From IMG/VR virus record IMGVR_UViG_3300038318_000524, positions 1-44,690 of that record: a DNA stretch of 44,690 nt; one strand, written 5' to 3'. The position numbers and the translations under genes are program-made. This DNA comes from a virus. Its lineage: Duplodnaviria > Caudoviricetes. Position 1 is the stretch's first letter, and each line of letters opens with the position of its first letter. Of the stretch, positions 1-19,883 are shown in pieces. The notes beneath the pieces are model-generated. The model was not told where the DNA came from and made no database searches. It worked only from the letters and a program-made list of their open reading frames with translations.

Positions 1-2295
1 TTATGTACAGCATCGCTCCTCATCCATCATTTTCCTGTAATGCTGATCTTGACCGAGGCATTCAAAGAGCAGCTTGAATACATCTTTGCACTGTTGCGCA
101 TCACCGGCGATTTCCACGAAGTGCATTCCGTCATTATAACCGAAGGACTGGGTGCTCAAATACGCAAGCATGGAATCGGCGAGGTGATATCTTGATCGGT
201 CGGCCTTTTCATCCTCGGGGTTGTCCACCAAGCGGGGGAGGTTTTCCTTGAGGACGGTATCACGAAGCTCGTTACCATCGTACCCGCAAAGCTGGATGCA
301 GTAATATTCCAATATTCTGCGGATAACGCTCAAGGTTGGTATTACAGTTGAAACTTCTCTGAACTCGCTCCACAGTGCCGCATATGAGTTTTGAACGGGC
401 GTGTAATTCTCTCTTTCGGCGGTTTCGTTTTGCGCCGGGCGGGTGCATTCAATTACCGCAGAAATGTTATTTGTTTTGCTTATCAGGAAGAATGACACCG
501 AATCATAATATCTGACCTGATTGTAGCTTATTTCTTTGAAAAAATAGGTGTTATGAGTTAGGACGAAAATCTGCCGAATAAACTCTCCGCCAACGCTTCC
601 GTCTTCGGGATGTATGTAGTGGCGGCAAACTTGAATCATATCCCGCACCAAGGCGCTTATGATAAACAGCGAACCGCTGTCCATGCTTGATACCGGGTCA
701 TCGATGACTACGATTCTGTCTTTTCTTACGCCGCTGTCATCAAGGCTGCCGCGAACCAGATGGTAGAAATACAGGAACGCAATGAAGTTCAGTTCGCCCT
801 CGCTCAGGTTTTCGGCAATGTCACCGTTCTGCCGACGCACCTCATAAACATTCGGATGACCATCCTTTTCGTGCAGCGTGAAGCCCTGAAAACCCGCATC
901 GCGCAGGGTGTTGTTGACGCCCTTAATTGTCGGCTGGGTACTGACGGTATGACGGCTCAGTTCGGTTATATCATCTGCCAACTTATCTGAGGCATCTTTT
1001 GCCGTTGTGATTTCACCCTCAAACCGTGTGATTTCCCCGGAGAGAGCGACATTCCTTGCGTTGTAATCCGAAACCTCGCTGGCAAGCGTGAATGCAATTA
1101 GTTCCCATACCTCATCGGTGCAAGCCTTCTGCTTAGTCGGTCTGTCCGCGATGATGGCATTGTTGGCTTCAATCAGATTATTAAATTCTGCAATGAGCAC
1201 ATTGATTTCGTTACGGATAGTTTGGATGCCGTCAAGCGTAACCACGGAGGACGGCTCCTTTATTTTTTCGGAGATTTTCTTTATATTTCCTTCGACTATC
1301 CGCTTAAGCAACTCAACTTTCGTTTTGTATGCTTCCGTGTCTATCTTGGAATACAAGTCCATTTGAAGATTATTGTCTAAAACGGCAATGTTGGCGTTCA
1401 TCTCTTCCGTGTAAACGGAGAGAAGCTGATTCAGTGAGGCTAAATCGGCCTGATATTGCTCGTCAAAGCACGATGCAATTTTTTCTTCAATGTCCGAAGG
1501 TAGCGGCTGCTGGCAATACGGGCATTTTCCATCCGGCGTATTCGGATAATGCTCATGACCTTGAGTGACCCACGATGCGGCATTCATTGCCTTAACGAAT
1601 CTGGCAAATTCCGTATCGCTGCTGCTTGTGATGGGCTGTCCCAAGAGAGCAAAAGCATTGGAAAACTCGGCCAGTTTGCTTGGTTCGCCAATCAATCTGA
1701 ATTTCGGATAAGAACGGCCGCCATCACTGTTCGCCGTGCTGTACAAATCTTCCAAGGCATTTATACTGTGTTCGACAGGAGTGATTTTTCTGACATTGAG
1801 AGCAAACTGTTGGCTCTTGCCAAAGCCAGACATCGCCTTGGGGAAAAGTTTACGGATGGTTTCGGTACGCTTCCAGCACTTGTCCTTAAAGTCCTCCCAA
1901 AGCTGAGCAGCTTCATCGGACTTTCCCTTTTTCTTCTTTTGCAGTTCCTTTAGTTCGGAGTCTTGGACTTTTTTCTGACCCGTCATTTCACCGACTTTTG
2001 CTTGAATCTCTGCATTTACCTTTCCGATGGTGTATACACCGGGAACATTTCCAAAGCCAGAAAAATTCTGCGTGATGAATTTCTTATCGAAGACCATAAT
2101 TGAATAGTCATCTTCCGAATACCCTTGCTCCCACGACAGTCCTTCATTTTTCTTGATAGCCTCGGCAATGGTGGATTTTCCCGTTCCGTTGTTGCCGTAA
2201 AAGAAATTCACCAGCGTAGGCTTGATTTCAATATCGCTAAAGGTAGCGGTATTGACCCTGATTTTTTGTATTCCATATCGTATTTTTTCTTTCAA
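1..2295 (-). CDS. RloC-like (AAA_13) ABC/Rad50-type ATPase with zinc hook and C-terminal HEPN-like region
   Basis: Walker A GNNGTGKS, coiled coils around CPYCQQ zinc hook, signature LSEGE, Walker B/D-loop VVIDDPVSS, H-loop LTHN, C-terminal IRRILEYY. Confidence 0.85.
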   Translation of the reverse strand: MKEKIRYGIQKIRVNTATFSDIEIKPTLVNFFYGNNGTGKSTIAEAIKKNEGLSWEQGYSEDDYSIMVFDKKFITQNFSGFGNVPGVYTIGKVNAEIQAKVGEMTGQKKVQDSELKELQKKKKGKSDEAAQLWEDFKDKCWKRTETIRKLFPKAMSGFGKSQQFALNVRKITPVEHSINALEDLYSTANSDGGRSYPKFRLIGEPSKLAEFSNAFALLGQPITSSSDTEFARFVKAMNAASWVTQGHEHYPNTPDGKCPYCQQPLPSDIEEKIASCFDEQYQADLASLNQLLSVYTEEMNANIAVLDNNLQMDLYSKIDTEAYKTKVELLKRIVEGNIKKISEKIKEPSSVVTLDGIQTIRNEINVLIAEFNNLIEANNAIIADRPTKQKACTDEVWELIAFTLASEVSDYNARNVALSGEITRFEGEITTAKDASDKLADDITELSRHTVSTQPTIKGVNNTLRDAGFQGFTLHEKDGHPNVYEVRRQNGDIAENLSEGELNFIAFLYFYHLVRGSLDDSGVRKDRIVVIDDPVSSMDSGSLFIISALVRDMIQVCRHYIHPEDGSVGGEFIRQIFVLTHNTYFFKEISYNQVRYYDSVSFFLISKTNNISAVIECTRPAQNETAERENYTPVQNSYAALWSEFREVSTVIPTLSVIRRILEYYCIQLCGYDGNELRDTVLKENLPRLVDNPEDEKADRSRYHLADSMLAYLSTQSFGYNDGMHFVEIAGDAQQCKDVFKLLFECLGQDQHYRKMMDEERCCT

Positions 2296-2325: not shown

Positions 2326-2523
2326 TTATTCTTTTATTTTTCCCTCGCGGACCCATTCGTCCACTTCGGATATTTTGAACTTATAGCGCTTTCCGGCACG
2401 ATAGACAGGCAATTTGCCTTCTCTGACCCATGTACGCACAGTATCTTGACTTAAGCTGAGATGCTCGGCGATGTCCTTAAGATTTACCCATTTTTCTGTT
2501 GTGTTTTCGGGTTCTGTGTTCAT
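2326..2523 (-). CDS. Excisionase/MerR-like helix-turn-helix protein (HTH_17 type)
   Basis: 65 aa, LKDIAEHLSLSQDTVRTWVREGKLPVYRAGKRYKF winged-HTH pattern; GGAGG RBS upstream. Confidence 0.85.
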   Translation of the reverse strand: MNTEPENTTEKWVNLKDIAEHLSLSQDTVRTWVREGKLPVYRAGKRYKFKISEVDEWVREGKIKE

Positions 2524-2553: not shown

Positions 2554-3216
2554 TTATAGCTTCAGAATCGGGATTTGCACGCCTGCATCTCGTAATTCTT
2601 CAATCAAGTTGATGCGTTTTATCGTCCAGTGGGTGCAGTTCATTTCATTGAACCTATCAGGCATACCGAGGTTAAGCTCCACAGCCATTGTGTTGATTAA
2701 GTCCTGTGAAACGCTCAACAATTTGCAAAAATAGAACTTAATGTCGTCCTCTTGGATTTTTATATCCGTGATCAGACCGACATAAGCCACATGGCCTTCG
2801 TTATTCTTGCCCCGGTATGTATCATTCTCACTGGCAAACAATGCGGGAAAAGTCTTTATTCTTTCTATTGCCTCCGTCGACATGGATGAATATTCATTTT
2901 TTGTATCAGCGGGTGTGTATTCGGTGAGAGAGCGTTTCTTGGCAATTGTAAAGTGAGAACCATCAAATGATTCTCCGGCTTTTACGAATAGGTTATAACA
3001 ATCGCAGTTCAAACGTCCCAGTGCGCCGATAATGTCAAACTGCCCGGCACCTGTCTGCGGCAGACCGGCAAGAAGTATGTTGAAACAATTATTGACCACA
3101 TCGGCACGGCCGATTTGTGTTCCGTTGTCGCCTGTCTGCGTAAAAGTCATCGGAGCAGGGCTTTGATTTGCCACAGCAATTTCCGCAGACTGAACAGGCT
3201 TTATCTCATTGCTCAA
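2554..3216 (-). CDS. Hypothetical protein with N-terminal RHIM-like motif and C-terminal globular domain
   Basis: 220 aa, TTG start with AGGAGGG RBS; residues 25-43 FTQTGDNGTQIGRADVVNN; C-terminal YNLFV...EYT...FPALFASE...THWTIK. Confidence 0.75.
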   Translation of the reverse strand: MSNEIKPVQSAEIAVANQSPAPMTFTQTGDNGTQIGRADVVNNCFNILLAGLPQTGAGQFDIIGALGRLNCDCYNLFVKAGESFDGSHFTIAKKRSLTEYTPADTKNEYSSMSTEAIERIKTFPALFASENDTYRGKNNEGHVAYVGLITDIKIQEDDIKFYFCKLLSVSQDLINTMAVELNLGMPDRFNEMNCTHWTIKRINLIEELRDAGVQIPILKL

Positions 3217-3229
3217 ATCATTACCCTCC

Positions 3230-4087
3230 TCAGTCGCCGTGTTTTATATTCAAAGTTCCGATACTGCCTATTTGGATTCCGTTATTGCCGTACTGATTAA
3301 ACACAACGGGGTTATTAACGGTCTGTGTTGTGTTCTGCTGCCGGTCATCGGATCGATCATCTGCCGAATCGTCAATAACCGTTTCCTCATAGCCGGGAGC
3401 GGACTCCTCGGCATCCTCCGAAGGAACAGCTTGTTCGATATAATTATAAACATTCAGATTTTGCGTGAAGCCTTTGGATGGTGTCCAGTTTTCAATTGTG
3501 TTTCTGCCGATTTTGTTATCCGGGCGTTGCAGAAGGATATAGTGCCACACGCCAACCAAAAACGCCTGCAGGCAAATGTCTGCAGAAGCCGTCAGTGATT
3601 CTTTGGTAACCGCCGTTCCGTTTTCCAGCGCATAGAACAATGCGTCAGATTCAATAGAACTGTCTTCTGATATTAACTCGATGAGTGCCTCCACAAGGTA
3701 CTCATCTTTTTTTGTGTCTTTTTCCGCATCAAGAAAGGTATCGGTGAACGCCAGCATACGAGAGAGAGCCTCGCCATAATTTGTGCGAACACATTCATCA
3801 AACGAGCGCACCTCACCCGTATCTCCAAAAGGCAGATAAGTGCCGGACGATGCTTTACAATTTTTGAAATCCGAGGTGTTACCCTTAAAAGTCGGGAAGG
3901 TCGATGGTGTTGGCTCTGTATAAGAAGGACTACATACTTTAATTAGGGCTACGAGTGCATTCGGGTCTGAAAGGCCGTCAGACTCACCGCTGTATTTTTG
4001 TCTGGGTCCGATTCTCTGTTTTCGGGCATTCAAGAGCTGCATGAAGAATGTTCCGCCGCAGAGGCAAGGATGCACATTATTTGACAT
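3230..4087 (-). CDS. Hypothetical protein with C-terminal RHIM-like motif after an acidic linker
   Basis: 285 aa, GGAGG RBS; ends FNQYGNNGIQIGSIGTLNIKHGD. Confidence 0.75.
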   Translation of the reverse strand: MSNNVHPCLCGGTFFMQLLNARKQRIGPRQKYSGESDGLSDPNALVALIKVCSPSYTEPTPSTFPTFKGNTSDFKNCKASSGTYLPFGDTGEVRSFDECVRTNYGEALSRMLAFTDTFLDAEKDTKKDEYLVEALIELISEDSSIESDALFYALENGTAVTKESLTASADICLQAFLVGVWHYILLQRPDNKIGRNTIENWTPSKGFTQNLNVYNYIEQAVPSEDAEESAPGYEETVIDDSADDRSDDRQQNTTQTVNNPVVFNQYGNNGIQIGSIGTLNIKHGD

Positions 4088-4106: not shown

Positions 4107-4163
4107 TACTATCACTACTAACGCTACTATCGTTACTAACCATAGCACACTAACTCTATTAAC
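4107..4163. repeat. Tandem TACTA(A/T)C direct repeats with 9-bp period
   Basis: Copies at 4107, 4116, 4125, 4134; degenerate copies at 4148 and 4157. Confidence 0.8.
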
Positions 4164-4169
4164 GATTGG

Positions 4170-4204
4170 ATTGCTCTTGTGAGAAGTCACAGGGGCAATT
4201 TTTT
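4170..4204 (+). terminator. Intrinsic terminator-like hairpin in the switch region
   Basis: ATTGCTCTTGTGA-GAAG-TCACAGGGGCAAT (13 pairs including G-U) followed by a T run. Confidence 0.55.
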
Positions 4205-4258
4205 ATTTTACAAGAAGTTTGCTGCCAGAAAACAAACCGCAACAAACCCCACTAAACC

Positions 4259-4287
4259 ATTATATCAGACTTTTATGTAAAAAACAA
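4259..4287 (-). promoter_or_regulatory. SigA-type promoter for the leftward operon
   Basis: Minus strand TTGTTT-17 nt-TATAAT with extended TGn -10. Confidence 0.65.
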
Positions 4288-4371
4288 TCAGACAAGCACA
4301 TCTTCTGTAAAAGTTCATACAGCTTTTCTCCTGTGATTTTCTCACAAATCAAAATCTAAGGAGAAAATCAT

Positions 4372-5088
4372 ATGAAAAATCATCAAAAACAGCACTACCA
4401 CGAGTTCTACATCATGCTGTCGGACGGCAGCAGCATCAAAACCTCCCGCCGCGAGTGCTTTGCACCGGCAGAGCCTGTTACGTCGGACAAGCCGTATCCG
4501 CAAAGATGGTACTACTCCCCGGATCAGCAGATGGCAATCCGTCTCCCCCGCAACGAACTCGGCGAAAAGTTTGGTAAAGACAATGCCGTCGACCTTAAGT
4601 CCGAAGAACGCGAGACAGAACGCAAGAACCTCTGCATCGGACAAACCTCCCATGCAAGCTGCACCGTGACCTGTGCCGAGTGCCATTTTAGCGATTACTG
4701 CGATTCTGAATATCGTGCAAAAAACGGTGTCGGCTGTAAACGCAAATGCGACTGCTGTTCTTCGTATGTTCGCCGCACCCTTGAGCTGGACAAGCCGCTC
4801 GGCTTTAACGACGACGGCGCCGAGGTCACCTTTGATCTTGCAGATGAAACTGCGGATGTTGAGGGTACATATTCCGGCACCGAACAGCGCGATGCAATCG
4901 CTGCGATTATCGCTTCCCTCGATCCCGTTGACCGTGAATTGTGGTTCTGCCTTGTTCGGAAAATCAAAAAGAATGAAGTTGCGGACAGGCTGCACATGAC
5001 CGTTGACGGTGTGTATTATCGGCAGAAAAGATTGGAGCGTATGCTCCGGGAAAATGAAGCCCTAAAAAAGTTTTTTGAGAATTTCTGA
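4372..5088 (+). CDS. Phage sigma-70/ECF-like regulator with Cys-rich segment
   Basis: C-terminal region-4-like HTH (LDPVDRELWF...KKNEVADRLHMTVDGVYYRQKR); central Cys cluster; AAGGAG RBS. Confidence 0.7.
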   Translation: MKNHQKQHYHEFYIMLSDGSSIKTSRRECFAPAEPVTSDKPYPQRWYYSPDQQMAIRLPRNELGEKFGKDNAVDLKSEERETERKNLCIGQTSHASCTVTCAECHFSDYCDSEYRAKNGVGCKRKCDCCSSYVRRTLELDKPLGFNDDGAEVTFDLADETADVEGTYSGTEQRDAIAAIIASLDPVDRELWFCLVRKIKKNEVADRLHMTVDGVYYRQKRLERMLRENEALKKFFENF

Positions 5089-5092
5089 TTTT

Positions 5093-5140
5093 CACTACGG
5101 ATATCGCTCCTTGCCTGTCCAGTACGAGGTGAGGAGCGAT
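5093..5140 (+). promoter_or_regulatory. Dispersed motif A, copy 1 (putative phage-sigma promoter/hairpin)
   Basis: ACTACGG-16 nt-GTCCAGTAC...GTGAGG; near-identical copies at 9225 and 41149. Confidence 0.65.
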
Positions 5141-5201
5141 GCTTCTACATTATGAACGGAGGTAAATCGTATGAAAATCAACGAAAAAGGAGGGCTTGCT
5201 T

Positions 5202-5519
5202 ATGTCGCCGGATAAAGCCCAGCAAATCGGAAACGACCTCGCCTGCATTGCGAGAACCCTTGCGGAATTGGCAAAGGAAATCAAAGCCGAGTATGACTTT
5301 GACCACGATGCCGATGACGAGCCCTTGGAAGAAGAACCTGCAGCGGAAGTCAAGCACCCGGATATTTCGGAGGTGAGAGGGCTTCTTGCCGAAAAGTCGA
5401 GAGCCGGTCACACCGCAGAGGTTCAGGCTCTGCTTGTCAAACACGGAGTCAAGAAACTTTCGGAAGTGCCGCCTGCAGAGTATACGGCGCTAATGGAAGA
5501 AGCGAGGAAGCTGGAATGA
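5202..5519 (+). CDS. Small conserved phage replication-module protein
   Basis: ATG 5202 after AAGGAGGG; C-terminal EVRGLLAEKSRAGHTAEVQALLVKHGVKKLSEV typical of the gene before DUF2800. Confidence 0.7.
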   Translation: MSPDKAQQIGNDLACIARTLAELAKEIKAEYDFDHDADDEPLEEEPAAEVKHPDISEVRGLLAEKSRAGHTAEVQALLVKHGVKKLSEVPPAEYTALMEEARKLE

Positions 5520-6625
5520 GCCATGCACTGCTATCCCCATCCGCAAGCAAAAGGTGGATAGAATGTCCACCCAGCGCAAGGCTCACCGAATTTCTGTCAG
5601 ATACCACTTCGGTCTATGCCGCCGAAGGAACGCTGGCTCACAGCGTAGCGGAAGGTAAGCTGAATCAGCGACTCGGTTACGCAGGCACGAAGCACAAATG
5701 CCAGGATGCCGAGATGGATGAATACACGGATGACTACGTCAATTTCGTTCTTGAACAGGCAGCGGCGCTCACAAATCCGACCGTTTATGTAGAACAGCGA
5801 GTTGACTGCTCCAAGTACATCCCGGAGTGCTTCGGTACCTGCGATGCGCTCATTATATCGGATGGTGTGCTTCATGTCATCGATCTAAAAAGCGGGTACG
5901 TCGAGGTCGACGCGGAAGAAAATGATCAGCTTCGTATATATGCTCTCGGTGCTCTTGCGATGTTTGACTTCCTGTTTGACTTCAACACGGTGAGAATGAG
6001 CATTTTTCAGCCGAAACTCGGCAACTGCTCCACCTGGGAGATTTCCGTAGCTGAACTGACCGATTGGGCGGAAAACACGCTGATACCCGCGGCGCAACTT
6101 GCATGGAACGGCGGCGGCGATTACAAAGCCGGAAGCCACTGTCAATTCTGCAAAGCCAAAGCAGAGTGTCGTAAACGCGCCGAAGCAAACCTTGCTCTTG
6201 CGGTCTATGACTTCACCGACCCGGCGCTGCTGCAAATATGTGAGATATCGGAAATCCTCGGCAAAATCGATGAACTGGTTTCGTGGAGTTCCGATGTTAA
6301 GGAGTTCGCCCTCTCCAAGGCACTGTCCGGCACGAAATTCGACGGCTGGAAAGTAGTCGAGGGAAGAAGCATACGGCATTATTCGGATGAAACCGCCGTG
6401 GCAAAGGCTGTAACGGATATCGGACTCGACCCATATGAACACAAGCTATTCGGAATTACGGCAATGACTTCATTGCTCGGCAAAAAGCGATTTGAAGACA
6501 CTCTTGGCGGCTTGACATATAAGCCCGCCGGCAAACCCGTGCTTGTACCCGTAACTGACAAGCGTAAAGAAATGAACACGGCAGCGGATGATTTCGCTGA
6601 CCCTATCGAAAATATGGAGGATTAA
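5516..6625 (+). CDS. DUF2800 family PD-(D/E)XK (Cas4-like) nuclease
   Basis: HALLSPS..RW..CP start, FGTCD...VIDLKSG, QLRIYA, C-terminal CQFC..K..C. Confidence 0.85.
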   Translation: MSHALLSPSASKRWIECPPSARLTEFLSDTTSVYAAEGTLAHSVAEGKLNQRLGYAGTKHKCQDAEMDEYTDDYVNFVLEQAAALTNPTVYVEQRVDCSKYIPECFGTCDALIISDGVLHVIDLKSGYVEVDAEENDQLRIYALGALAMFDFLFDFNTVRMSIFQPKLGNCSTWEISVAELTDWAENTLIPAAQLAWNGGGDYKAGSHCQFCKAKAECRKRAEANLALAVYDFTDPALLQICEISEILGKIDELVSWSSDVKEFALSKALSGTKFDGWKVVEGRSIRHYSDETAVAKAVTDIGLDPYEHKLFGITAMTSLLGKKRFEDTLGGLTYKPAGKPVLVPVTDKRKEMNTAADDFADPIENMED

Positions 6626-6629
6626 TATC

Positions 6630-7211
6630 ATGAAAAACACTGTAACTAACGCAAATCCCTGCAAGGTCATAACCGGTCTCGCTCGTCTGAGCTATGCCAA
6701 CATCTGGACTGCAAAGAGTATCAACGGAGGCACACCGAAGTTTTCTACCAGCGTTCTGATTCCGAAGTCCGACACTGCTACCGTCCAGAAAATCAAAGCG
6801 GCGATTCAGGCGGCTTATGACGAGGGCGAAAGCAAGCTCAAGGGCAACGGCAAGTCCGTACCTGCTCTCGCGACACTGAAAACTCCCTTGAGAGATGGGG
6901 ATGTTGAACGCCCGGACGATGAGGCATATGCGGGTCACTGGTTCATCAACGCCAACAGCAATACTGCCCCCGGCGTCGTGGACATCAACCGTCAGCCCAT
7001 CCTCGATACCAGCGAAATCTACTCTGGCGTTTATGCCCGTGTGTCGCTTTCTCTGTATGCGTTCAACAGCAACGGAAATCGAGGAATCGCCTGTGGGCTT
7101 CAGAACATCCAGAAGATTAAGGATGGTGCGTCTCTCGGCGGCAAGGCTAACGCCGAAGACGACTTCAATGACGATTTTACAACTGACGCAGACGAGGATT
7201 TCCTTTCATAA
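6630..7211 (+). CDS. DUF2815 family ssDNA-binding protein (T7 gp2.5-like)
   Basis: RLSYANIW, LRDGD, YSGVYAR, GIACGLQNIQK; acidic aromatic C-tail; GGAGG RBS. Confidence 0.85.
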   Translation: MKNTVTNANPCKVITGLARLSYANIWTAKSINGGTPKFSTSVLIPKSDTATVQKIKAAIQAAYDEGESKLKGNGKSVPALATLKTPLRDGDVERPDDEAYAGHWFINANSNTAPGVVDINRQPILDTSEIYSGVYARVSLSLYAFNSNGNRGIACGLQNIQKIKDGASLGGKANAEDDFNDDFTTDADEDFLS

Positions 7212-7228
7212 ATCCATTATTCTCGGTT

Positions 7229-7264
7229 GGTGGCGGAGGGTTATCCTTCCGCCGCTTTCCTTTA
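7229..7264 (+). terminator. Hairpin/terminator after SSB
   Basis: GGTGGCGGAGGG-TTAT-CCTTCCGCCGCT followed by TTCCTTT. Confidence 0.55.
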
Positions 7265-7270
7265 TAGGCG

Positions 7271-9220
7271 GTGAAAAACTTGAAAAATATAAGTATAGAC
7301 TTGGAAACGCACAGCAGCGCCAATCTCGCCAAATGCGGTGTGTACAAATATGTGGAGGCACAAGATTTTGAAATAATCCTATTTGGATACAGCATTGACG
7401 GTGGCGAGGTTAGCGTAGTCGATTTGGCGCAGGGTGAAAAAATACCGCCTGAGGTGCTTTCTGCACTGGAGGATGATTCTGTTATCAAATGGGCATTCAA
7501 TAGTTCCTTTGAGCGCATATGCCTTTCCCGTTTCCTCGGCTATCCTGCTGGGGATTACCTCGACCCGTCCTCATGGCGATGTTCTATGATATGGTCGGCA
7601 TATTTGGGGCTGCCGCTGTCCCTAAAAGGCGTCGGCGCTGTTCTCGGTTTGGATAAGCAGAAAATGGATGAAGGCAAAGACCTCATCAAATATTTCTGCC
7701 AGCCCTGTGCTCCGACAAAGTCAAACGGCGGCCGGACACGCAATATGCCGTCCGACGCCGAAGACAAATGGTCGACCTTTAAGGAATATAACAAGCGCGA
7801 TGTTGAGGTTGAAATGCAGATACAGCAGAAACTCGCAAAGCTCCCCGTGCCGGAAAGCGTGTGGGACGAATATCACCTAAGCGAAGAAATCAACGACCGT
7901 GGCATCCGTGTGGATATGCCCTTTGTAGAGCAAGCAATCGCTTTTGATGAAAAGTCCCGTTCACAGCTCTCTGCCGCCATGCGGGATATTACAGAACTGG
8001 ATAATCCAAACTCCGTACAGCAGATGAAAGCGTGGCTTTCCGAAAACGGTCTGGAAACGGATACGCTTGGTAAAAAGGCTGTCGCTGAGTTGTTGAAAGA
8101 CGCGCCGGGCAACCTCGGCGAGGTGCTTCTGCTCCGTCAGCAGCTTGCGAAATCCTCGGTAAAAAAGTATACGGCAATGGAAAACTCGGTCTGCTCGGAT
8201 AACCGTGTCAGAGGTATGTTCATGTTTTATGGAGCCAACCGCACAGGCAGATTTGCTGGGCGGCTGGTGCAATTACAAAATCTGCCGCAGAACCACATTC
8301 CCGACCTTGCCGAAGCCCGTGGACTCGTTGCAAGCGGAAATTATGACGCGCTTGAAATGTTGTATGAGGATATCCCGGACACGCTTTCCCAGCTTATCCG
8401 CACGGCATTTATTCCACAGGACGGCAGGAAATTCATCGTTTCAGATTTCAGTGCCATCGAGGCGAGGGTTATCGCATGGTTTGCCGGAGAGACATGGCGG
8501 CAGGAGGTTTTTGAAAGCGGAGGCGACATTTACTGTGCGTCTGCAGCTGCTATGTTCCATGTCCCTGTGGAAAAGCACGGCGAAAACGGACATCTGCGGC
8601 AAAAAGGAAAAATTGCTGAATTGGCACTCGGCTACGGCGGCTCTGTGGGCGCACTCAAAGCGATGGGCGCTCTTGACATGGGACTTACCGAGGAGGAGCT
8701 TCAACCGCTGGTAAACGCATGGCGGCAGTCCAACCCTAACATAGTACGGTTCTGGTGGGATGTTGACGCCGCCGCTAAAAGGTGCGTAAAAGAAAAAACA
8801 ACAACCGAATCCCACGGCATACGGTTTGCCTATCAAAGCGGATTTCTCTTTATTACCCTTCCATCCGGCAGGCGGCTTGCTTATGTGAAACCCCGCATCG
8901 GTAAAAACCGTTTCGGTGGTGAGTCTGTGACATATGAAGGTGTCGGCGGTACAAAGAAATGGGAGCGGCTCGAATCCTACGGCCCCAAGTTCGTGGAAAA
9001 CATCGTGCAGGCAACATCCAGGGATATTCTCGTATATGCCATGCAGACGCTACGCAATTGTTTCATCGTCGCTCATGTACATGATGAGCTTATTATCGAA
9101 TGTGATAAGCGTGTATCCAAAGACGCAATCTGTGAGCAAATGGGACGGGTGCCGCTCTGGGCTAAGGGCCTTTTACTCCGTGCCGACGGATATGAATGCG
9201 AGTTTTATAAAAAAGATTAA
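7271..9220 (+). CDS. polA: Phage family A DNA polymerase with 3'-5' exonuclease domain
   Basis: ExoI IDLET, motif A SDFSAIEAR, motif B RQKGKIAELALGYG, motif C HVHDE; start may be GTG 7271 or TTG 7280. Confidence 0.93.
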   Translation: MKNLKNISIDLETHSSANLAKCGVYKYVEAQDFEIILFGYSIDGGEVSVVDLAQGEKIPPEVLSALEDDSVIKWAFNSSFERICLSRFLGYPAGDYLDPSSWRCSMIWSAYLGLPLSLKGVGAVLGLDKQKMDEGKDLIKYFCQPCAPTKSNGGRTRNMPSDAEDKWSTFKEYNKRDVEVEMQIQQKLAKLPVPESVWDEYHLSEEINDRGIRVDMPFVEQAIAFDEKSRSQLSAAMRDITELDNPNSVQQMKAWLSENGLETDTLGKKAVAELLKDAPGNLGEVLLLRQQLAKSSVKKYTAMENSVCSDNRVRGMFMFYGANRTGRFAGRLVQLQNLPQNHIPDLAEARGLVASGNYDALEMLYEDIPDTLSQLIRTAFIPQDGRKFIVSDFSAIEARVIAWFAGETWRQEVFESGGDIYCASAAAMFHVPVEKHGENGHLRQKGKIAELALGYGGSVGALKAMGALDMGLTEEELQPLVNAWRQSNPNIVRFWWDVDAAAKRCVKEKTTTESHGIRFAYQSGFLFITLPSGRRLAYVKPRIGKNRFGGESVTYEGVGGTKKWERLESYGPKFVENIVQATSRDILVYAMQTLRNCFIVAHVHDELIIECDKRVSKDAICEQMGRVPLWAKGLLLRADGYECEFYKKD

Positions 9221-9224
9221 AAAC

Positions 9225-9277
9225 CACTACGGATTTCCGTCCTTGCCTGTCCAGTACGAGGTGAGGACGGATTTTTT
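9225..9277 (+). promoter_or_regulatory. Dispersed motif A, copy 2 (hairpin with T tail; putative terminator plus promoter)
   Basis: CACTACGGATTTCCGTCCTTGCCTGTCCAGTACGAGGTGAGGACGGATTTTTT. Confidence 0.65.
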
Positions 9278-9306
9278 CGTTCAATTCACATTCGGAGGTA
9301 TCACAG

Positions 9307-9684
9307 ATGCTCTATATCAAAACAAAACTGGGGGACGGCAGAATCGTCAGGTCGGGTATTCAGGAGAACAACACCTACGCCGTGTGCGGCGAGTGCGGCA
9401 AGGAAATCCCCATTCATCTCAACGAGGTTTTTTCCGTTGACAACGCAAACCCGCTTGATGCGGATATTGTCTGCCCGGAATGCACCAGAAAGCACTTTGC
9501 AAAACAGAAACCCTCGATGGAGGACATTGTGCTTCTTGCCACGGCGCTGTGCAGGTTCGGCTACAGCAAGCAGATTCTCCGCCTGTATGACGAATTCGGT
9601 ATCAGCGCAATTCAGGAACTGGGGGTGCAGGATTACGGTGTTTATGCTGAAGCGCTGCTTTCTGCTGTATCAGACAGAAATTAA
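9307..9684 (+). CDS. Hypothetical zinc-ribbon protein
   Basis: CGEC...CPEC pairs; GGAGG RBS. Confidence 0.7.
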   Translation: MLYIKTKLGDGRIVRSGIQENNTYAVCGECGKEIPIHLNEVFSVDNANPLDADIVCPECTRKHFAKQKPSMEDIVLLATALCRFGYSKQILRLYDEFGISAIQELGVQDYGVYAEALLSAVSDRN

Positions 9685-17494: not shown

Positions 17495-18676
17495 ATGATT
17501 ACTTATAAAACAGCAGAAAGCGTCTGCGCCGGACACCCGGATAAACTGTGCGACCTCATTGCCGACAGCATCCTAGATGCCTGTCTACGCAAAGACAAGG
17601 CTTCCCGTGTGGCCTGCGAGGTCATGGCGACTAAGGGCAAAATCATCGTTGCGGGCGAGATCACCTGCGACGGCAAAGTCGACATCCGCTGGGAGGTACG
17701 TGAAGTCCTCCGCAAGGTCGGCTATAATCCGTGGAAGTTTACGGTTTTCGTATTCATTCATAAGCAGAGCAAGGATATCGACGCCGGAGTTACCACTGCC
17801 CTCGAAGCCCGGAACGGCAGTGAGGAACGCTACGCCTCCCTCGGTGCGGGTGACCAAGGCACTGTTTACGGCTACGCCACCAATGAGACCCGTGAGATGC
17901 TTCCACTCCCGCTGGTGCTGGCGCACCGCATCGTCAAGCGTGTGGATACCGTCCGCAAGGACAAAATCGTGAAAGGTATTCTGCCAGACGGCAAAGCGCA
18001 GGTCACGGTTGAATATGAGGACGGCAAGCCCAAGCGTGTGAAAACTATCGTGGTTTCCGTTCAGCACGACCCTGCGAAAACACAGGAGCAGCTTTACTCC
18101 GACATCAAGCAAAACGTGCTCTGGCAATGCTTTGAGGACTTTCCCTTTGACGATGACACCGAAATCCTCATCAATCCCTCCGGCAGATTTGTCGAGGGCG
18201 GTCCCGCCGCCGACACAGGCTTGACGGGCAGAAAGATAATGGTGGACACTTACGGAGGGCTTGCCCTCCACGGCGGCGGAGCGTTTTCCGGTAAAGACCC
18301 CACAAAGGTCGACCGCAGCGGCGCTTACATGGCGCGGTACATCGCAAAGAATATCGTATGGAGCGACTTAGCAGAGAGATGCGAAGTCGCTCTTTCTTAT
18401 GCCATCGGCAAGGCTGACCCTGTGGCGGTTGACGTTGACGCTTTCGGCACGAGCAGCCTCACCAATGAAGAACTGCGTGAAATCGTGCTATCCGTGTTCA
18501 ACCTGCGTCCGGCGGCAATCATCGAAAAACTGCGACTGCGCAATGCCATCTACGAGGACACGGCAGTCTACGGCCACTTCAATTCCTGTCTGTTCCCATG
18601 GGAGGATGGCAGTGATCATTACAAAGAACTGAAAAAGGCGGCGGAGAAATATGTTGATAGAAAAGATTCAGACTGA
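17495..18676 (+). CDS. metK: S-adenosylmethionine synthetase
   Basis: ESV..GHPDK, GAGDQG, GGGAFSGKDPTKVDRS all intact. Confidence 0.96.
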   Translation: MITYKTAESVCAGHPDKLCDLIADSILDACLRKDKASRVACEVMATKGKIIVAGEITCDGKVDIRWEVREVLRKVGYNPWKFTVFVFIHKQSKDIDAGVTTALEARNGSEERYASLGAGDQGTVYGYATNETREMLPLPLVLAHRIVKRVDTVRKDKIVKGILPDGKAQVTVEYEDGKPKRVKTIVVSVQHDPAKTQEQLYSDIKQNVLWQCFEDFPFDDDTEILINPSGRFVEGGPAADTGLTGRKIMVDTYGGLALHGGGAFSGKDPTKVDRSGAYMARYIAKNIVWSDLAERCEVALSYAIGKADPVAVDVDAFGTSSLTNEELREIVLSVFNLRPAAIIEKLRLRNAIYEDTAVYGHFNSCLFPWEDGSDHYKELKKAAEKYVDRKDSD

Positions 18677-19883
18677 GCGGCTCATTCCCGCCGACTATAA
18701 TCCTCGCAAAAACCTCAAGCCTGGCGATCCGGAATATGAAAAGCTGAAGCGTTCCCTCGAGCAGTTCGGTTATGTTGAACCCGTTATATGGAATAAGACC
18801 ACAGGCCATGTCGTCGGCGGTCACCAGCGTTTGAAGGTGCTGCTTGACATGGGCATCACCGAAGTCGAGTGTGTGGTCGTTGAGATGGACGCCAAAAAAG
18901 AAAAGGCGCTCAATGTTGCACTCAACAAAATATCCGGTGACTGGGACAAAGGCAAGCTGGCTCTACTCATCGCCGACCTGCAAGGCGCAGACTTCGATGT
19001 ATCGCTTACGGGTTTTGACCCCGGTGAGATTGATGACCTTTTCAAGGATTCACTCAAAGACGGTATCAAAGACGATGATTTTGATGTGGATGCAGAGTTG
19101 CAAAAGCCTGCAATCACCAAGCAAGATGATGTATGGCTGCTCGGTCGGCATCGACTGGTATGCGGAGATTCCACCAAAGCCGACACCTTTGCAGCTCTGA
19201 TGGACGGGAAGCTCGCCAATCTTGTGGTAACAGACCCTCCGTACAACGTCAACTACGAAGGTACGGCTGGTAAAATCAAAAACGACAATATGGGGAATGA
19301 AGCGTTTTATGACTTCCTGCTTGCGGCATTTATGAACACCGAGGCGGCGATGGCACAGGACGCTTCTATTTATGTATTTCATGCTGACACCGAAGGGCTT
19401 AACTTCCGCAAGGCGTTCTCGGACGCGGGCTTTCAGCTTTCCGGCTGCTGTATCTGGAAAAAGCCGTCATTGGTGCTTGGGCGCAGTCCATATCAGTGGC
19501 AGCACGAGCCTGTACTGTTCGGCTGGAAGAAAAAAGGCAAGCACAACTGGTATACAGACCGCAAGCAGACCACCATCTGGGAGTTTGAAAAGTCAAAGAA
19601 AAACGCTGACCATCCGACCATGAAGCCAATTGCTCTGCTGGCATATCCCATTATGAATAGCAGCCTCACAAACTGTATCGTGCTCGATCCTTTCGGCGGG
19701 AGCGGTTCTACGCTTATCGCCTGTGAGCAGTCCGACAGGATTTGTTTCACAATTGAGCTTGATGAAAAATACTGCGATGTCATTGTAAAGCGGTATATCG
19801 AGCAGGTCGGTGGTGCAGACGGTGTTTTTGTTATCCGTGACGGTGTCACCATGAAATATGCGGAGGTGTCCGCCGATGAGTAA
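18651..19883 (+). CDS. ParB-like N-terminal domain plus N6A/N4C DNA methyltransferase (beta class)
   Basis: YNPR...VGGHQR; DPPY precedes HPTMKP and DPFGGSGST. Confidence 0.9.
   Translation: MLIEKIQTERLIPADYNPRKNLKPGDPEYEKLKRSLEQFGYVEPVIWNKTTGHVVGGHQRLKVLLDMGITEVECVVVEMDAKKEKALNVALNKISGDWDKGKLALLIADLQGADFDVSLTGFDPGEIDDLFKDSLKDGIKDDDFDVDAELQKPAITKQDDVWLLGRHRLVCGDSTKADTFAALMDGKLANLVVTDPPYNVNYEGTAGKIKNDNMGNEAFYDFLLAAFMNTEAAMAQDASIYVFHADTEGLNFRKAFSDAGFQLSGCCIWKKPSLVLGRSPYQWQHEPVLFGWKKKGKHNWYTDRKQTTIWEFEKSKKNADHPTMKPIALLAYPIMNSSLTNCIVLDPFGGSGSTLIACEQSDRICFTIELDEKYCDVIVKRYIEQVGGADGVFVIRDGVTMKYAEVSADE

Follow-up and report, generated by a model that had tools for sequence, protein, structure and literature searches.

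Locus and Gene Layout

The window analyzed here, meaning the whole stretch of 44,690 nt, is a 44.7-kb provirus record (IMG/VR record IMGVR_UViG_3300038318_000524) that carries replication, head, tail, lysis and recombinase genes. At its left end, four co-oriented genes (two that we call A and B, a 65-aa HTH_17 gene and a RloC-like ATPase gene) run divergently from the early genes (Table 1), with a gap of 13 nt between A and B. An original prediction, made from the letters of the sequence, took A and B for an amyloid-signaling pair joined by RHIM-like motifs at the C-terminus of A (hereafter the A tail) and near the N-terminus of B (the B head), and both open reading frames (ORFs) and both motifs do lie on the minus strand where it had placed them.

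Table 1. Coordinates of genes, domains, motifs and upstream elements of the A-B cassette in the window.
Feature	Position	Strand	Remarks
Gene A, 285 aa	3230-4087	-	Helical globular domain (~residues 7-205), acidic disordered linker, C-terminal motif
A globular domain	3470-4072	-	Basic N-terminal half; likely DNA-binding; no clear fold match
A C-terminal motif, residues 263-281	3245-3301	-	
Gene B, 220 aa	2554-3216	-	Disordered motif-bearing head, then PUA-like domain
B N-terminal motif, residues 25-43	3088-3144	-	
B C-terminal domain	2569-3015	-	Predicted PUA-like (YTH/EVE/McrB-N-like) fold
9-bp-period direct repeats	4107-4164	strand-less	Candidate operator, just upstream of the A ribosome-binding site
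TATAAT box	4259-4264	-	Not called by a consensus promoter scan
65-aa HTH_17 / excisionase / MAD1-like gene	2326-2523	-	After B in 89/104 loci
AAA_13 RloC-like ABC ATPase	1-2295	-	PADLOC candidate PDC-S06; <=600 bp from B in 88/104 loci

Matched Motifs and Their Co-variation

In the window, the A-tail and B-head motifs have 9 of 19 residues in common, including 8 of the first 12. Their local alignment score of 54 was reached by none of 20,000 shuffles and by none of the 261 further pairs of neighboring ORFs, all co-oriented, taken from the fetched loci (mean 19.2, maximum 40), a background set that takes in spurious ORFs. Only A has the strict IQIG core, whereas B has TQIG. The A motif is conserved and the neighboring linker is unconserved.

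Scans of viral and genome contigs yielded 212 loci, mostly from Bacillota, and B directly follows A in 106 of the 116 distinct loci with enough downstream DNA. Removal of four broken loci left 185 pairs for the analysis of co-variation, from which 36 divergent pairs (<70% domain identity) were tested. The A tails of these pairs score 56.9 against their own B head vs. 30.5 against other heads (p = 5e-5, the lowest value that the test can give), the cognate head ranking first in 16/36 and among the top three in 28/36, and the linker next to the A motif gave no such effect in the same test. Variants of the PNYG, NNYGKGVQ, QSGGxGKQ, and GDIYS types are present together in A tail and B head. Among 12 extra pairs outside model building, several of them related to one another (they include a Streptococcus prophage, a Lactococcus plasmid and pairs with the A' and NACHT partners described below), every cognate ranked first or second of 37. 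Gathering homologous pairs, as had been proposed with the original prediction, revealed both conservation and co-variation of the motifs, in the C-terminus/N-terminus arrangement of amyloid-signaling pairs. These comparisons lend strong support to a motif-mediated coupling of A and B, and we consider it highly probable that the motifs mediate a specific contact between the two proteins.

Could the match instead reflect chance or a neutral local duplication? The window itself points that way, as 8 of the 10 codons at its matched residues are identical. The window is an exception, however: over the 36 pairs, codons at matched residues are identical in 184/388 cases vs. 43% expected (near-saturated), and identity this close to expectation suggests that selection on the protein, not recent duplication, maintains most motif matches. 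Co-variation in spite of near-saturated codons, a conserved motif beside an unconserved linker, and loss of the motif in fusions (see below) likewise speak against chance or duplication, a reading that appears largely refuted and that we hold to be scarcely credible.

The history of the tails was followed on FastTree trees with hand-assigned labels, for 35 of 42 rows. A-tail classes change 9 times on the B-domain tree and 15 times on the A-domain tree (18.0 and 18.3 when shuffled), and these fewer changes on the B-domain tree indicate that the A tail tends to travel with B. Such a pattern would fit cassette exchange inside the A linker.

A Motif Family Wider Than RHIM

The RHIM identity proposed for the motifs was not supported: an [IVL]Q[IVL]G core was found in only 3/36 A tails and 3/36 B heads, with Q[IV]G on both sides in 4/36 pairs, and RHIM- and PP-type Pfam models gave no match at E<=10 to the 72 motif segments, although these are short and HMMER filters drop weak matches. 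Given the rarity of the core and the lack of a Pfam RHIM-type match, the QIG resemblance in the window would be one variant of a wider N/Q/G-rich motif, for which the RHIM label appears too narrow. Relative to the globular domains, the motifs are enriched in N (18.4 vs. 5.1%), Q (7.9 vs. 3.4%), and G (10.4 vs. 6.3%) and depleted in K (2.7 vs. 6.9%) and L (2.3 vs. 9.3%). Both composition (~20-25 residues, enriched in Q/N/G/V/I, depleted in K/P/L) and gene-pair layout (matched C-terminal/N-terminal motifs in collinear, closely spaced genes) fit those described for BASS/FASS-type pairs.

Fusions and Exchange of Partners

As in BASS/FASS systems, all-in-one fusions of the same domains occur beside the two-gene form. 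Nine A-PUA fusions among the best 150 representatives and one more at L204 make 10, and other A fusions bear NACHT, NACHT-SNaCT14, or NB-ARC modules (seven A-NLR fusions). Our motif model matches 111/127 stand-alone A and 82/153 stand-alone B proteins vs. 1/10 A-PUA fusions (in which it follows the PUA domain) and 0/7 A-NLR fusions; that is, the motif appears to take the place of the covalent link present in fused relatives.

Partners are also exchanged. In four loci (L031, L039, L070, L119), the following gene encodes a NACHT protein, and the A tail carries another motif, matched at the N-terminus of that protein (SNaCT14 was confirmed in L033, L070, and L119). Conversely, B is paired through matched motifs with an unrelated upstream family, A', whose N-terminus matches phrog_6948 (loci L180, L182, L183, L185, L186, L200, L220, L221, L288, and L210, the last with an A'-like PUA fusion). 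Matched-motif two-gene forms together with all-in-one fusions are, as far as genome comparison can tell, the signature of amyloid-signaling pairs.

Several loci carry additional members. Three-gene A-B1-B2 loci (L001, L005, L014, L087, L203, L207, L209) encode two divergent PUA-domain proteins; aligned with the A tail, the B2 head gives scores of 42-59 and the B1 head scores of 28-49. In L125 and L129 (9052-9678), a third protein encoded after the RloC-like gene has an N-terminal motif matching the B head of the same locus and a helical domain similar to inserts that certain long members of the A and A' families carry (P0157, L200). Further architectures (P0146, P0124, P0241, P0299, P0195, P0204) include a receiver domain before the motif in A, A-motif-FHA and A-PUA-motif-DUF6650, and the same protein set also has tandem PUA domains with motif-like stretches.

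Fusions bear directly on what kind of contact the motifs make. At least 10 A-PUA fusions are motif-poor, so a tether would suffice, and the motifs vary across the family, most of them having no RHIM core; both points would suit a small, constitutive, non-amyloid beta-strand clasp that tethers a split one-component regulator and involves no self-propagating switch. Yet a clasp needs complementary partners, and the A and B motifs are near-copies of each other, as fits homotypic stacking. Moreover, where a locus has a second B gene or encodes a third protein, all partners bear related motifs, and NACHT partners have the same arrangement. We therefore regard the clasp as improbable and moderately favor an amyloid-type contact between A and B.

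Protein B as a Predicted Nucleic Acid Reader

Residues 63-219 of B are predicted to adopt a PUA-like fold like those of YTH, EVE (VcaM4I, THYN1), and McrB N-terminal domains (identity 6-17%), with W197, H196, Y74, and F77 conserved; no Pfam match, P-loop family match or nuclease domain was found in B. On this structural prediction, B would read modified or foreign nucleic acid. A profile of its domain retrieves 1,321 cluster representatives at E<=0.001, and elsewhere the domain is fused to TIR, as had been suggested in the original prediction, and also to trypsin or to A. At 220 aa, B is not an NLR receptor in the window, NACHT downstream partners being found only in the four sibling loci named above.

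A 64-nt frameshifting deletion in B (2738-2801) is shared by L003 and contigs from runs X11, X13, and X15, with A intact; B can thus be broken while A is kept, and the truncated B retains its motif. On an E. coli plasmid (L296, 2519-3328), a PUA-TIR fusion lies beside a YiiX/NlpC-P60 family gene, a candidate defense pair.

Accessory Status and Cassette Neighbors

A related record, L215, is 96.5% identical over window positions 4352-9662, but the entire A-B cassette, repeats included, is replaced in it by an HTH gene and a 917-aa ORF. No match to A was found in the whole L215 record, and A is absent from both L215 and G005. A near-identical relative that lacks the pair indicates that A-B is accessory cargo and that A is not an essential repressor. 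The idea that A is the prophage lysogeny repressor and B its inducer has three points in its favor: A is divergent from the early operon, the scan of window ORFs turned up no repressor of XRE type, and palindromes lie in the intergenic region. It is nevertheless very improbable in view of L215 and of a copy of the pair on a plasmid, pUCCL628C of Lactococcus, whose fetched stretch contains no phage genes.

That plasmid pair has no adjacent HTH or RloC-like gene, and half of it has already entered a published screen. The primers listed for construct 159 (pUCCL628_133) by Grafakou et al. (2024; PMC11381338; Table S2) match both ends of the B gene, and no construct number is given there for the neighboring gene _132, which is probably A. 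Construct 159 was cloned alone in pNZ44 and, in the accessible parts of that source, is not among the systems reported active (Grafakou et al., 2024; PMC11381338). This outcome for B alone fits a B that needs A, and also fits no defense role.

Contigs from two RNA-library runs of one study cover the cassette to 4242-4243, just past the TATAAT box. The early genes are not covered by those contigs and are covered by a DNA run. Showing neither strand nor level, the contigs give a weak hint that the cassette is expressed in the lysogen, and their ends at 4242-4243 weakly hint at the promoter. Restriction-modification and other defense-type genes lie further downstream in related loci. The RloC-like ATPases beside B (window 1-2295 and 53 homologues) have no conserved R-x4-6-H, the defining HEPN motif, in their C-terminal consensus; judging from these sequences, they may have no site for anticodon-nuclease activity and serve as a sensor or a partner.

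Other observations concern the surrounding sequence. Intergenic TGTGA-N4/5-TCACA palindromes lie at 4178-4191 and 4332-4346; the first sits in a terminator-like hairpin (4168-4201) that faces the early genes and is seen upstream of many A homologues. A 43-nt stretch occurs twice, after a sigma-like gene (9225-9267) and after a polymerase gene (5093-5135), with 93% identity via L215/L003 cross-matches. The prophage also encodes a SAM synthetase and a ParB-fused DNA methylase (17495-19883).

Protein A and Its Upstream Repeats

Neither A nor B matches a Pfam, PADLOC, NCBIfam, or PHROG family, and family searches agreed with the original prediction that neither resembles an NLR or a Bell/HeLo protein. 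The model of A is mostly helical (predicted local distance difference test, pLDDT, high for residues ~4-219 and <50 for 220-285), with predicted helices at 11-20, 41-52, and 64-75. Structure comparison found no clear match for its globular domain, so that the suggested fold search succeeded for B only. Compared with Bell/HeLo bundles, A matched neither a family nor a fold, an unlisted fold being possible; its KD19 peaks at 1.47, at residue 168, and no membrane helix was found in A. Over residues 1-85, 50/60 homologues carry a net basic charge, and 9-bp-period repeats upstream of A, present also in the plasmid copy, are significant in 40/60 A loci vs. 1/65 control genes; A' genes have 10-bp upstream repeats in 5/6. 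Taken together, the lack of a fold match, the basic N-terminal half and the repeats make A a likely DNA-binding, autoregulatory protein that would bind its own upstream repeats, on the model of BrxR and CapW, which regulate defense operons. No profile or fold match to an HTH was found in A (the XRE profile comprised nine close sequences), and we accordingly keep the DNA-binding regulator step at about even odds. A transcriptional rather than toxic output of A is slightly favored.

A toxic A is possible: with the same motif coupling, A could be an abortive-infection effector that B, or else a NACHT sensor, triggers in the way that Agp activates Bab. It occupies the position of an effector, as the upstream gene with a C-terminal motif and as the N-terminus of NACHT/NB-ARC fusions, and there are fusions of the B domain with TIR and trypsin effectors. 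The lactococcal plasmid carries a stand-alone two-gene cassette whose B was clonable alone in a high-copy vector and was not protective, and toxicity and DNA binding can coexist. However, A has no membrane helix and no family match, inspection of the distant P0166 by eye shows substitutions at polar positions that close homologues conserve, and operator-like repeats track A and A'. On balance we judge a toxic A rather unlikely, though worth serious attention.

Proposed Mechanism

Our preferred reading, to which we assign a probability of roughly 0.45, is that A-B is a conserved accessory pair whose motifs join the two proteins by amyloid-type (cross-beta) templating, such that B would switch A, a probable DNA-binding regulator of its own defense operon. 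A would normally sit on the tandem repeats before its own gene. B would cluster on invading nucleic acid and thereby nucleate the motif; A would then be drawn into the motif assembly, and its capture would alter expression of the cassette (i.e., the HTH gene, the RloC-like ATPase and restriction-modification cargo). A stronger form, in which B polymerizes on invader DNA/RNA, templates an A fibril and reprograms the defense operon without killing the cell, with motif variants serving the prophages of unicellular Bacillota as exchangeable codes for specificity, is unlikely. One-component regulators of defense operons, such as BrxR/CapW, combine a sensor with DNA-binding (wHTH-WYL domains) and head variable defense cargo. 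A-PUA fusions would have this layout, while A-B differs in having other domains and in being split and motif-linked.

Relation to Known Systems and Significance

A close likeness is to Bab/Agp (BASS11) of E. coli ECOR25, which, in the accessible parts of its description, also consists of adjacent genes in prophage defense cargo, with a ~20-residue common motif at the C-terminus of the first and the N-terminus of the second protein and a receptor that is not an NLR (Ibarlosa et al., 10.1101/2024.11.07.622273). Its partners differ, being a Bell-type membrane effector and a TPR-GreA/B-PIN sensor, whereas A-B combines a helical domain of no matched fold with one predicted to be PUA-like. For Bab/Agp, in the literature consulted the one bacterial amyloid-signaling system with shown function, amyloid formation and phage resistance were shown and the pathway ends in a membrane-targeting death domain (Ibarlosa et al., 10.1101/2024.11.07.622273). 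In A-B, found in Bacillota, amyloid assembly and defense are predicted from sequence.

BASS1-10 Bell/NLR pairs, as far as the accessible text describes them, resemble A-B in their collinear close genes, matched Q/N/G/V/I-rich, K/P/L-poor motifs and all-in-one fusions beside two-gene forms, and A-NACHT pairs copy their effector-NLR layout; they differ in being found mainly in multicellular Actinobacteria/Cyanobacteria (rare or absent in Firmicutes), with Bell, TIR2, CHAT, hydrolase, or guanylate cyclase effectors and NLR receptors (Dyrka et al., 10.1101/2020.01.06.895854). A is further the N-terminal domain or motif-linked partner of NACHT-SNaCT clade 14 proteins, though the window locus has no NACHT. 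In the accessible text on NACHT proteins, clade 14 is the exception to their diverse effector fusions, and transcription-regulatory domains occur among NACHT adaptors (Kibby et al., 10.1101/2022.07.19.500537).

We found no description of the A-B pair in the literature, though closed supplements, alignments in figures (BASS11 carriers, BASS tables, the NACHT domain table) and subscription journals, all outside our search, could list it. A-B is like Bab/Agp and BASS in layout and evolution, lacks a conserved RHIM core and, in the window, an NLR receptor, and has an effector that is not recognizably Bell; it appears to be a real variant of amyloid-type signaling pairs with what would be new receptor and output domains.

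The many matched motif variants provide a natural panel on the specificity of amyloid templating, and the two-gene copy on a dairy Lactococcus plasmid, its B half already screened alone, is a ready test system. If motif coupling holds as proposed, A-B would be an undescribed form of bacterial anti-phage signaling, and would add to amyloid signaling a receptor class (a PUA-like reader), an output domain (possibly a transcription factor) and a phylum.
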